Notes under the pieces: model-generated
Told to the model about the DNA's origin: nothing
Database searches by the model: none
Seen by the model: only the letters and a program-made list of their open reading frames with translations
Part shown: in pieces, positions 28,765-32,726 of the stretch
Numbering within the stretch: the first letter of the stretch is position 1
How the letters are laid out: each line of letters opens with the position of its first letter
Position numbers and translations under genes: made by a program
Assembly: GCF_003334255.1 (NCBI RefSeq)
Contig: NZ_QOWU01000046.1
Strand: one strand, 5' to 3'
Source of the DNA: Escherichia coli
GTDB lineage: Bacteria; Pseudomonadota; Gammaproteobacteria; Enterobacterales; Enterobacteriaceae
DNA: 43,525 bases

Positions 28765-31044
28765 ATGAAGAAAAAAATTGAATCCTACCAGGGTGCTGCA
28801 GGTGGTTGGGGTGCTGTTAAATCCGTAGCGAATGCAGTACGTAAGCAGATGGATATACGCCAGGATGTTATTGCCATGTTTGACATGAATAAGCCAGAGG
28901 GCTTTGACTGTCCGGGTTGTGCATGGCCAGATCCTAAGCACAGTGCGTCATTCGACATTTGTGAAAACGGCGCAAAAGCAATCGCCTGGGAAGTCACGGA
29001 TAAGCAGGTAAACGCCTCTTTCTTTGCTGAGAATACGGTTCAATCATTACTTACCTGGGGAGACCACGAGCTTGAGGCTGCGGGGCGACTCACTCAGCCT
29101 TTGAAATATGATGCCGTCAGCGACTGTTACAAGCCATTAAGCTGGCAACAAGCTTTCGACGAAATTGGCGCACGCCTTCAAAGCTATAGTGATCCCAATC
29201 AGGTTGAATTCTATACTTCGGGCCGCACTTCCAATGAAGCTGCCTTTCTTTATCAGCTTTTTGCCCGTGAATACGGGAGCAATAACTTTCCCGACTGCTC
29301 CAACATGTGCCATGAACCGACAAGCGTGGGTTTGGCAGCGAGTATCGGTGTAGGTAAAGGGACCGTGTTGCTGGAAGACTTTGAGAAGTGCGATTTAGTC
29401 ATTTGCATTGGGCATAACCCTGGTACAAACCACCCTCGCATGCTGACTTCGTTGCGCGCTTTAGTGAAACGGGGAGCGAAAATGATCGCCATCAATCCTC
29501 TACAGGAACGTGGCCTGGAGCGATTTACCGCACCGCAAAACCCGTTTGAAATGCTGACGAACTCTGAGACTCAGTTGGCCAGTGCCTACTATAACGTGCG
29601 CATTGGTGGCGATATGGCGTTGCTCAAGGGGATGATGCGCCTGTTAATTGAGCGCGATGATGCTGCAAGCGCCGCAGGTCGGCCTTCATTGCTTGATGAC
29701 GAGTTTATTCAAACGCATACCGTCGGCTTTGACGAGCTACGCCGTGACGTTCTCAATTCCGAGTGGAAAGATATCGAACGTATTTCTGGACTAAGTCAGA
29801 CACAAATCGCCGAACTGGCTGACGCATATGCCGCTGCCGAACGCACCATTATCTGTTACGGAATGGGGATCACTCAGCACGAACATGGTACCCAGAACGT
29901 ACAGCAACTGGTCAATCTGCTGTTGATGAAAGGTAACATTGGCAAGCCTGGTGCGGGTATCTGCCCACTACGTGGACACTCTAATGTACAGGGCGACCGA
30001 ACCGTCGGTATCACCGAGAAACCGTCTGCAGAGTTTCTGGCTCGTCTGGGTGAGCGCTATGGCTTCACCCCACCTCATGCACCTGGACATGCTGCAATTG
30101 CCAGCATGCAAGCAATATGTACGGGGCAGGCTCGAGCATTGATCTGCATGGGGGGCAATTTTGCGCTGGCAATGCCAGATCGGGAAGCGAGCGCTGTACC
30201 GTTAACGCAATTAGATTTGGCGGTACACGTAGCCACTAAGCTTAACCGCTCTCATCTGTTGACCGCACGGCATAGCTATATTCTGCCGGTCCTGGGACGT
30301 AGCGAGATTGACATGCAAAAAAACGGTGCGCAGGCGGTAACCGTTGAGGATTCAATGTCGATGATTCATGCCTCGCGTGGCGTGTTAAAACCCGCCGGTG
30401 TAATGCTGAAATCAGAGTGTGCAGTGGTCGCGGGAATCGCGCAGGCAGCACTACCCCAGAGCGTGGTAGCCTGGGAGTATCTGGTGGAAGATTATGATCG
30501 CATTCGCAATGACATTGAAGCTGTGCTGCCAGAGTTCGCCGACTATAACCAGCGCATCCGTCATCCCGGTGGTTTTCACCTGATAAATGCAGCTGCTGAA
30601 AGGCGCTGGATGACGCCGTCAGGTAAGGCTAATTTCATTACCAGCAAAGGGCTGTTAGAAGATCCCTCTTCAGCGTTTAACAGTAAGCTGGTCATGGCGA
30701 CAGTACGCAGCCACGATCAGTACAACACGACGATTTATGGTATGGATGATCGCTATCGAGGGGTATTCGGTCAACGAGATGTGGTCTTTATGAGTGCTAA
30801 ACAAGCTAAAATTTGCCGTGTAAAAAACGGCGAAAGAGTTAATCTTATTGCGCTTACGCCAGACGGTAAGCGCAGCTCACGCCGCATGGATAGATTAAAA
30901 GTGGTCATTTACCCTATGGCTGACCGCTCACTGGTGACCTATTTTCCAGAATCGAATCACATGCTAACACTTGATAACCACGATCCATTAAGTGGCATTC
31001 CTGGCTATAAAAGTATTCCGGTTGAATTAGAACCATCAAATTAA
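28765..31044 (+). CDS. ydeP: Molybdopterin oxidoreductase (formate-dehydrogenase-like), acid-resistance protein
   Basis: 759-aa ORF ([28 protein letters not shown]...) with an N-terminal Cys cluster (CPGCAW..C) typical of molybdopterin oxidoreductases. Confidence 0.9.
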
Positions 31045-31057
31045 TGCCTCTTCTCAT

Positions 31058-31088
31058 TTCTTCTGCTGTCATCCGCACAGCAGAAGAA
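31058..31088 (+). terminator. Hairpin downstream of ydeP (weak U-tract)
   Basis: TTCTTCTGCTGT-(7-nt loop)-ACAGCAGAAGAA perfect 12-bp stem. Confidence 0.4.
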
Positions 31089-31162
31089 TTCCTCATTGAC
31101 TATTATTTCGCAATTTGCTCACATGGATTAAATTAAACTACATACTATAAGATATAAACTTC

Positions 31163-31180
31163 TGCCTACAGCTGTAAGAA
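31163..31180. promoter_or_regulatory. EvgA-box-like palindrome upstream of safA-ydeO
   Basis: TGCCTACA-GC-TGTAAGAA; the surrounding ~55 bp are closely similar to the ydeP upstream module at 28504-28560. Confidence 0.55.
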
Positions 31181-31291
31181 ACTCCGCTCAGTACTGAAGC
31201 ACCAGTCCTATTTCCTCTTTTCTCCAGCCTGTTATATTAAGCATACTGATTAACGATTTTTAACGTTATCCGCTAAATAAACATATTTGAA

Positions 31292-31489
31292 ATGCATGCG
31301 ACCACAGTGAAAAACAAAATCACGCAAAGAGACAACTATAAAGAAATCATGTCTGCAATTGTGGTTGTCTTATTACTGACACTTACGTTGATAGCCATTT
31401 TTTCGGCAATTGATCAGCTGAGTATTTCAGAAATGGGTCGCATTGCAAGAGATCTTACACATTTCATTATCAATAGTTTGCAAGGCTGA
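31292..31489 (+). CDS. safA: Small membrane connector protein SafA (EvgS-to-PhoQ signalling)
   Basis: 65-aa ORF (MHATTVKNKITQRDNYKEIMSAIVVVLLLTLTLIAIFSAIDQL...) with a single transmembrane segment, immediately upstream of ydeO. Confidence 0.85.
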   Translation: MHATTVKNKITQRDNYKEIMSAIVVVLLLTLTLIAIFSAIDQLSISEMGRIARDLTHFIINSLQG

Positions 31490-31563
31490 AAACAAACAGC
31501 AAATTATAAATATGAAATGTTAAAAAAGTATCGATAAAAACTTTATTGTTTTAAGGAGATAAA

Positions 31564-32325
31564 ATGTCGCTCGTTTGTTCTGTTATATTTATTCATCATG
31601 CCTTCAACGCTAACATTTTAGATAAAGATTACGCCTTCTCTGACGGCGAGATCCTGATGGTAGATAACGCTGTTCGTACGCATTTTGAACCTTATGAGCG
31701 GCATTTTAAAGAGATCGGATTTACTGAAAATACCATTAAAAAATATCTACAATGCACTAACATCCAGACAGTGACGGTGCCTGTTCCTGCGAAGTTTTTA
31801 CGTGCTTCAAATGTACCGACTGGATTGCTTAATGAAATGATTGCTTATCTCAACTCGGAAGAACGCAATCATCATAATTTTTCAGAACTTTTGCTTTTTT
31901 CTTGCCTGTCTATTTTTGCCGCATGCAAAGGTTTCATTACACTATTAACTAACGGTGTGCTATCCGTTTCTGGGAAAGTGAGAAATATTGTCAACATGAA
32001 GCTGGCGCACCCATGGAAGCTGAAAGATATTTGTGACTGCCTGTACATCAGTGAAAGCCTGTTGAAGAAAAAACTTAAGCAAGAGCAAACGACATTCTCA
32101 CAGATTCTTTTAGATGCAAGAATGCAGCACGCAAAAAATTTGATACGCGTAGAAGGTTCAGTCAATAAAATTGCCGAACAATGTGGTTATGCCAGTACAT
32201 CTTATTTTATTTATGCGTTCCGCAAACATTTCGGCAACAGTCCGAAGAGAGTTTCTAAGGAGTACCGTTGTCAAAGTCACACGGGTATGAATACGGGCAA
32301 CACGATGAATGCTTTAGCTATTTGA
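31564..32325 (+). CDS. ydeO: AraC-family acid-resistance regulator YdeO
   Basis: 253-aa ORF with a C-terminal AraC-type HTH (IAEQCGYASTSYFIYAFRKHFGNSPK). Confidence 0.9.
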   Translation: MSLVCSVIFIHHAFNANILDKDYAFSDGEILMVDNAVRTHFEPYERHFKEIGFTENTIKKYLQCTNIQTVTVPVPAKFLRASNVPTGLLNEMIAYLNSEERNHHNFSELLLFSCLSIFAACKGFITLLTNGVLSVSGKVRNIVNMKLAHPWKLKDICDCLYISESLLKKKLKQEQTTFSQILLDARMQHAKNLIRVEGSVNKIAEQCGYASTSYFIYAFRKHFGNSPKRVSKEYRCQSHTGMNTGNTMNALAI

Positions 32326-32373
32326 TTATTTGCTAACGAGTAGTCAACCACACACGCTGCGTAAGAATTAAAT

Positions 32374-32406
32374 GGGGCAGCCATTCCCTGCCCCGCGTTG
32401 TTTTTA
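32374..32406 (+). terminator. Rho-independent terminator downstream of ydeO
   Basis: GGGGCAG-ccattcc-CTGCCCC stem followed by GCGTTGTTTTT. Confidence 0.7.
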
Positions 32407-32726
32407 GGCGATATATTTATTGAAATAAATAAGTGACATCCATCACATATTTATGCACTTGCATAACCTGTTGCATGATTATTTATGATCTCAATTCTGC
32501 ATTTTGTCAGTAAAATGCAATAATTTATTAAATATCAATAAATTAGTTGTTTATCGGCGAGAAATTACTTAATAGAACAGAAAGTAATGTCAACGCTTTA
32601 TGGACTGTTTTTTCCCTTTTTTTAGCTAAATCTGCTATCTCTTTATGTGACTAACTTCACTTACATCCACTTATTTCTCTTCGTAAAATTACTTTGGAAT
32701 TAAGTACAATAAGAAGAGGAACATTT

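Follow-up and report, generated by a model that had tools for sequence, protein, structure and literature searches.

A probable EvgA-dependent promoter of the safA-ydeO operon and its in-register sister upstream of ydeP in Escherichia coli

Overview

The feature immediately upstream of safA is very likely an EvgA-dependent sigma-70 promoter of the safA-ydeO operon and a structural sister of the ydeP promoter, which lies 2.66 kb further upstream. The DNA analysed, hereafter the window, is a 43,525-nucleotide stretch of E. coli (contig NZ_QOWU01000046.1 of assembly GCF_003334255.1), and the 18-bp inverted repeat at 31163-31180 with which the feature begins is an EvgA site, as the comparisons shown here and published work support. 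The box upstream of safA is an already described element of the EvgA regulon and textbook knowledge for this system. Published work has already established that EvgA controls both ydeP and safA-ydeO, so that the main finding is not new; the value added here is modest, being a testable map of the position of the core promoter and of the flank bases that are common to all EvgA promoters as against those confined to the ydeP/safA pair.

Genomic setting and known EvgA control

The window contains the ydeQ-ydeP-safA-ydeO region of E. coli K-12, a point on which the RefSeq annotation and the list of open reading frames concur, and all four genes lie on its plus strand. Window positions are converted into K-12 coordinates by subtraction (NC_000913.3 = 1,615,251 - window position). 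Three of the genes are referred to throughout:

28765-31044, plus strand: ydeP (open reading frame list and RefSeq annotation)
31292-31489, plus strand: safA (open reading frame list and RefSeq annotation), driven by the promoter module
31564-32325, plus strand: ydeO (open reading frame list and RefSeq annotation), driven by the promoter module

The 256 bp between 31045 and 31300 show 100% identity to E. coli K-12 MG1655, and 5374 of the 5426 complete genomes of E. coli contain them. About 50 genomes lack them, which accords with a report that strain MP1 has lost safA-ydeO, and four to six further matches to the safA upstream region occur on plasmid-labelled records in the E. coli genome collection.

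EvgA has been reported to be phosphorylated by EvgS at mildly acidic pH, and the safA-ydeO operon to be under the control of phosphorylated EvgA, with safA expressed together with ydeO from an EvgS/EvgA-regulated promoter. Expression of safA is reportedly lowered by PhoP and, via feedback, by YdeO. Published work further describes ydeP as a direct EvgA target, an EvgA binding site for every directly EvgA-regulated gene, the binding of EvgA to inverted repeats upstream of yfdX and yfdWUVE, and the absence of both safA-ydeO and evgAS outside E. coli.

Directly 3' of the ydeP stop codon, a hairpin at 31058-31088 on the plus strand (TTCTTCTGCTGT-loop-ACAGCAGAAGAA) folds as RNA with -17.6 kcal/mol (z = -4.95; 0/200 shuffles as stable) and is unchanged in ten alleles. 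It is likely the ydeP terminator, separating the safA module from ydeP transcription, in keeping with transcription of safA-ydeO as a unit of its own; the consensus terminator scan left it uncalled because its T-run is weak. Rfam covariance models gave no match at E <= 1 across 28000-32600.

The EvgA box and its sister copy

The consensus used for the EvgA box was TTCYTACANNTGTARGAA, which we take to be the sequence given by Masuda and Church and by Itou et al. Itou et al. (2009) are said to have reported that phosphorylated EvgA binds directly to the box. The elements of the safA-ydeO promoter, numbered from the first base after the box (+1) where a plus sign is given, and the paralogous module of ydeP are as follows:

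31163-31180, plus strand: EvgA box (18-bp inverted repeat TGCCTACAGCTGTAAGAA) of the safA-ydeO promoter, with one mismatch to the consensus and its centre predicted near -73.5; 16/18 identical to the ydeP box by direct count
31181-31213 (+1 to +33), plus strand: linker, 24/33 identical (73%) to ydeP by direct count
31205-31210, plus strand: GTCCTA, an element resembling a NarL/FixJ-type half-site (TCYNA; EvgA core TCYTA), starting 42 bp 3' of the start of the left half-site of the box and abutting the -35 position
31211-31216, plus strand: vestigial -35 TTTCCT, placed by the -10 at 31233-31238 with a 16-bp spacer; 3/6 matches to TTGACA
31214-31229 (+34 to +49), plus strand: non-conserved spacer, 5/16 identical (31%, chance level) to ydeP by direct count
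31230-31238 (+50 to +58), plus strand: extended -10 TGtTATATT, 5/6 matches to TATAAT, in the same register as TGtTAATTT of ydeP and 7/9 identical to it by direct count
31243-31246 (near 31245), plus strand: predicted transcription start of safA-ydeO, from the -10 and the register with ydeP 28587, giving a leader of about 47 nt
28504-28587, plus strand: paralogous ydeP module, with box at 28504-28521, linker at 28522-28554, extended -10 at 28571-28579 and leader start at 28587

The earlier note had proposed, from the letters alone, a second EvgA-box promoter module serving safA-ydeO. Its string was recovered where it had been placed, with TGCCTACAGCTGTAAGAA at 31163-31180 followed by ACTCCGCTCA (31181-31190), TGAAGC (31195-31200), AGTC (31204-31207) and ATTT (31210-31213), and its distance of about 130 bp from safA corresponds to the 129 bp that separate the start of the box from the safA ATG at 31292. 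The proposal itself is borne out by the single mismatch to the consensus, by the 50-nt block shared with ydeP described below, by the RefSeq gene names and by the published EvgA control; so is the statement that two EvgA outputs, ydeP and safA-ydeO, lie within 3 kb, both being EvgA-regulated according to the literature.

The ydeP box (28504-28521) differs from TTCYTACANNTGTARGAA at two positions. In the window as a whole the consensus has three matches against 0.5 expected, a number that 0/100 shuffles reached. The third match, TTCTTTTAGATGCAAGAA at 32105-32122, has three mismatches and falls within the coding region of ydeO; it is probably a chance occurrence. No EvgA box was detected upstream of gadE at three or fewer mismatches. 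A scan of genome contigs (298 Gb) with CTGTAAGAAANTCCGC returned only chance matches in unrelated phyla, the pattern being too short for 298 Gb, and a full-text search of the literature with the box sequences gave nothing relevant.

When the two intergenic regions were aligned locally, 28505-28554 paired with 31164-31213 in a single block of 50 nt that has no gaps and 40/50 identical positions. Its score of 50 was reached by none of 1000 dinucleotide-preserving shuffles (19.5 +/- 2.5, maximum 32). The safA/ydeP pair was not listed by the repeat search, so that the evidence for it is this direct alignment of both intergenic regions. A further candidate, the D1 repeat (28612-28634 against 31235-31257, 74%), scored below the shuffle mean and was treated as chance.

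Promoter map downstream of the box

The homology between ydeP and safA runs in register for 76 bp, from the box through the 33-bp linker and the decayed 16-bp spacer to an extended -10 of the form TGTTAWWTT. In the 95 nt 3' of the safA box, TGtTATATT is the only -10-like hexamer preceded by TGn, and its ydeP counterpart TGtTAATTT (28571-28579) stands in exact register with it, at the same offset of 2659 as the 50-nt block. Both copies show the signature of an extended -10 sigma-70 promoter, namely TGn directly 5' of a hexamer with A2 and T6.

The register with ydeP also allows the transcription start to be predicted. A study of CsrA used a ydeP 5' leader RNA that starts at -178 relative to the ATG, the primer for its T7 template beginning with ATGAGAGATGATG; this places the leader start at window position 28587, a position derived from the design of the leader probe rather than from primary mapping and lying 8 nt 3' of the extended -10, within the 6-8 nt expected between a -10 hexamer and the start. 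A start at 28587 puts the centre of the ydeP box at -74.5. The predicted safA start corresponds to about 1,584,005-1,584,008 on the minus strand of NC_000913.3; the safA locus was absent from the transcription start site tables of the three genome-wide studies that were searched.

Since the -35 TTTCCT has only 3/6 matches to TTGACA, the core promoter should depend on an activator, and the safA core promoter is accordingly predicted to be activator-dependent. The ydeP start and the shared -10 register together set the flanks singled out by the earlier note at about -63 to -33: relative to the predicted safA start, TCCGC (31183-31187) lies at about -63 to -59, TGAAGC (31195-31200) at about -51 to -46 and AGTC (31204-31207) at about -42 to -39. 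The suggestion that these flanks mark the -35 and -10 thus holds in part, in that ATTT overlaps the weak -35; none of them is the -10, which at 31230-31238 falls beyond the stretch covered by that note. Judged from the sequence, the 33 bp that separate the box from the -35 are a constrained linker and not a -10, as the preservation of the linker (73%) and the extended -10 (7/9) on either side of a spacer at 31% argues for selection on the linker. Neither the 76-bp in-register homology nor the six common linker positions described below were found in the literature searched, the primary mapping papers lying outside that search.

The safA leader has no structure (z = -0.1). Within it, ATTAACG and TTTAACG form a direct repeat with a period of 10 nt at 31249-31265 (about +5 to +21); the bases between the two units differ from allele to allele, and two alleles have a perfect repeat (GATTAACG twice).

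Comparison of five EvgA promoters

A search of the K-12 evgAS locus with the consensus located boxes at emrK/evgA, at frc (a perfect match) and at yfdX (two boxes). The promoters of ydeP, safA, emrK, frc and the yfdX-proximal box were then anchored on the box, each along its direction of transcription. Six columns are identical in 5/5 promoters (C+9, A+10, G+19, T+26, C+27 and T+31), corresponding in safA to CA at 31189-31190, G at 31199, TC at 31206-31207 and T at 31211; the -35 position begins with T+31. When the ydeP/safA and frc/yfdX pairs were held in register and the lineages slid against each other, six invariant columns were reached in only 1/2500 shifted registers, with a shifted mean of about 0.8-1.0. 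As ydeP pairs with safA and frc with yfdX, the five promoters amount to only some three independent lineages.

The distance from the box to the -10 is likewise shared. Counted from the box, the -10-like hexamer begins at +53 in safA and at +54 in emrK and yfdX, and ydeP has TGn-TAATTT at +53; for frc, three candidates (+49, +52 and +54) leave the position ambiguous. The box-to--10 distance is therefore 52-53 nt in four promoters at least, with frc as the ambiguous fifth.

Around T+26 and C+27, together with Y+28 and A+30, the promoters read TCTTA (ydeP), TCCTA (safA), TCCTC (emrK), TCTGA (frc) and TCTGA (yfdX), and this TCY.A register is that of the core of the EvgA half-site TTCYTACA. The GTCCTA element at 31205-31210 may thus be a dock for a proximal EvgA protomer or for RcsB, a candidacy that stems from this resemblance. 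Scored with a position weight matrix for the half-site, the element reaches 0.6-0.7 bits against 6-12 for true half-sites. The matrix, built from 12 true EvgA half-sites, revealed no good secondary site in any of the linkers, the best scoring at most 2.8 bits against the same 6-12.

The frc and yfdX-proximal promoters (L002 13476-13506 and 14470-14500, minus strand) have in common an in-register block, CTCTCTGATT, at +23 to +32, and both also have CAAA(A)TG near +9, offset by about one base between them. This suggests that frc and yfdX may be a further pair of EvgA promoter modules that arose by local duplication. Elsewhere in the locus, at L002 3535-3548, TAAGAAGACTTATA adjoins the emrK/evgA box on the evgA side and contains a small inverted repeat, TAAG-N4-CTTA, which resembles the boxes of the NarL family and of the RcsB type.

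Variation among E. coli alleles

In ten diverged E. coli alleles of the safA module, the half-sites of the box, the six common columns and the extended -10 TGTTATATTAAG are unchanged. Variation in the box is limited to its position 1 and the central spacer, and the single-nucleotide polymorphisms of the linker and spacer fall at +7, +20, +21, +24, +39, +42, +45 and +46, none of them on an invariant column; it follows that TCCGC is polymorphic at its last C, TGAAGC at its C and AGTC at its A. Among 5426 genomes, 7 records fall below 95% identity for the 76-nt safA module as against 766 for the 76 nt upstream of it, a comparison confounded by the 28-nt word requirement of megablast.

In the ydeP module, ten alleles differ only in the central NN and at the second position of the box (window 28505), where K-12 has G (AGCC) and nine diverged alleles all have T (ATCC), which is closer to the consensus; the K-12 ydeP 76-mer is identical in 2640 records, so that both alleles are common. 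The ydeP leader (28587-28765, 178 nt) folds at -40.5 kcal/mol and is stabler than shuffles (z = -3.4), being composed of a 14-bp hairpin at 28614-28645 (TTTAATCTATT..AATAGATTAAA), an 8-bp G+C-rich hairpin at 28654-28673 and an enclosing long-range helix. These hairpins are almost invariant in the ten alleles, with a 5-nt insertion just 5' of the first hairpin in ST131 and B1172.

Relation to known systems

The safA locus is a described member of the K-12 EvgA promoters (ydeP, safA/b1500-ydeO, emrKY, yfdX and frc/yfdW), and nothing about it is different in kind: a repeat of the TTCYTACANNTGTARGAA type stands 5' of an EvgA-induced operon, and the box-to--10 distance is that of at least three of the four others. 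Masuda and Church (2002/2003) and Itou et al. (2009) are said to be the sources for the EvgA-activated promoters of E. coli K-12.

EvgA and BvgA both belong to the NarL/FixJ family, and the Bordetella BvgA promoters (Pfha, Pptx, Pfim3) are alike in that a NarL/FixJ regulator occupies a high-affinity inverted repeat far 5' of a weak core; the BvgA heptad TTTCCTA moreover resembles the EvgA half-site TTCCTA. At BvgA promoters the dimers have been reported to lie 22 bp apart, with the proximal one at the -35 and with weak sites that are not predictable from sequence, and such additional weak contacts extending up to the -35 would explain the conserved EvgA linker. The two systems differ, however, in that the half-sites are reversed (TAAGAAA-TTTCCTA at Pfha against TTCYTACA-NN-TGTARGAA for EvgA) and in that no secondary half-site above 2.8 bits occurs in the EvgA linkers.

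Sites for other regulators of safA were also considered. The PhoP box (T/G)GTTTA-N5-(T/G)GTTTA occurs with three mismatches at 31247-31263, and its 133 matches in the window against 116 expected are at chance level. For YdeO, whose box consists of inverted ATTTCA hexamers 9-21 nt apart, ATTTCC (31210-31215) and TGAAAT (31286-31291) are separated by 70 nt and the candidate was rejected. YdeO ChIP-chip identified seven sites, and the safA locus is none of them.

Proposed mechanism and function of the conserved flank

In the mechanism proposed here, a dimer of EvgA phosphorylated by EvgS would occupy the high-affinity box at about -74. By analogy with the EvgA homologue BvgA, this upstream dimer would nucleate weaker contacts reaching as far as the TCY.A half-site-like element beside the -35, where a further EvgA protomer or RcsB would contact RNA polymerase. 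What the conserved flank itself does may be read in several ways.

It is possible, if well short of probable, that the flank is a landing path for further phosphorylated EvgA dimers in the manner of BvgA, ending at GTCYTA by the -35. The BvgA layout, with its primary site furthest upstream, its 22-bp spacing, its proximal site at the -35 and its weak, featureless sites, would accommodate such a path; GTCYTA contains the EvgA core TCYTA and begins four helical turns (42 bp) beyond the left half-site, and A10 and G19 agree with the consensus when the site is moved along by 22 bp. Yet the putative secondary half-site scores near zero with the weight matrix, and an offset of 42 bp is not twice 22 bp. 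A co-activator, most likely RcsB, seated alone or with EvgA on a TCYNA half-site at about -40 to -36 is a somewhat more doubtful reading. RcsB boxes at promoters regulated by RcsB only typically abut the -35, and the box is reportedly given by Filippova et al. (2018) as TNRGAN4TCYNA. Its right half, TCYNA, is in register in 4/5 EvgA promoters, directly 5' of the -35 position as at RcsB box promoters, and G+19 falls on R3 of the box; the left half, however, is wanting (T1 in 0/5, G4 in 1/5 and A5 in 1/5 promoters), so that the full 14-bp box was rejected at safA, and the motif was fitted post hoc, after the conserved columns had been seen. The genetic argument comes from ydeP, for whose induction RcsB has been reported necessary: neither ydeP nor gadE is induced by acid once RcsB is lost, even when EvgS is constitutive. 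This requirement could nevertheless be indirect, and RcsB dependence of safA-ydeO was not found in the literature searched. The co-factor site that the earlier note had envisaged in these flanks is plausible in view of the ydeP genetics.

That the similarity of the flanks reflects mere shared ancestry from a local promoter duplication, with no function beyond the EvgA box, is unlikely. The excess identity of ydeP and safA (32/52 linker positions in common against 18-23/52 for other pairs) and the private block CTCTCTGATT of frc and yfdX point in that direction, and suggest that the EvgA promoters may have arisen via local duplications. As a full explanation pure ancestry is nonetheless improbable because the spacer has decayed to 31% while the linker stands at 73%; in addition, six columns are common to five promoters beyond what shifted registers give, and the ydeP linker is unchanged in ten alleles. 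A role of the flank as the core promoter itself, with TGAAGC as the -35 and TATTT(T/C), or TATATT of ydeP, as the -10, is very improbable. The ydeP copy does contain TTGAAG-16-TATATT (28535-28562), with 9/12 matches in the consensus scan, but the safA register reads CTGAAG, the counterpart of TATATT is CTCTTT (31216-31221), and no -10-like hexamer follows at 16-18 nt; the 3 promoter-like sites of the scan fall short of the 5.8 that chance would give, and the ydeP leader start in the literature is 28587, not near 28569. As an observation on ydeP, TTGAAG-16-TATATT at 28535-28562 could be a second promoter of that gene, about 18 nt 5' of the literature leader start.

Returning to the EvgA-dependent promoter with its conserved linker, all EvgA promoters may have a rigid architecture of about 76 bp, with the centre of the box at around -74, 52-53 nt to an extended or good -10, the invariant CA, G, TC and T, and TCY.A as a dock for RcsB or EvgA-RcsB; this generalisation is offered as a speculation that we consider rather unlikely.

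Significance

We know of no RcsB site mapped so far at EvgA promoters, and TCY.A provides a concrete candidate position for RcsB as co-activator. If the generalised architecture is true, RcsB or EvgA-RcsB at TCY.A would explain why EvgA-dependent acid induction needs RcsB. The safA-ydeO operon is the branch node of the EvgS/EvgA acid signal, leading to PhoQ/PhoP via SafA and to GadE via YdeO, so that its promoter determines the gain of inducible acid resistance.
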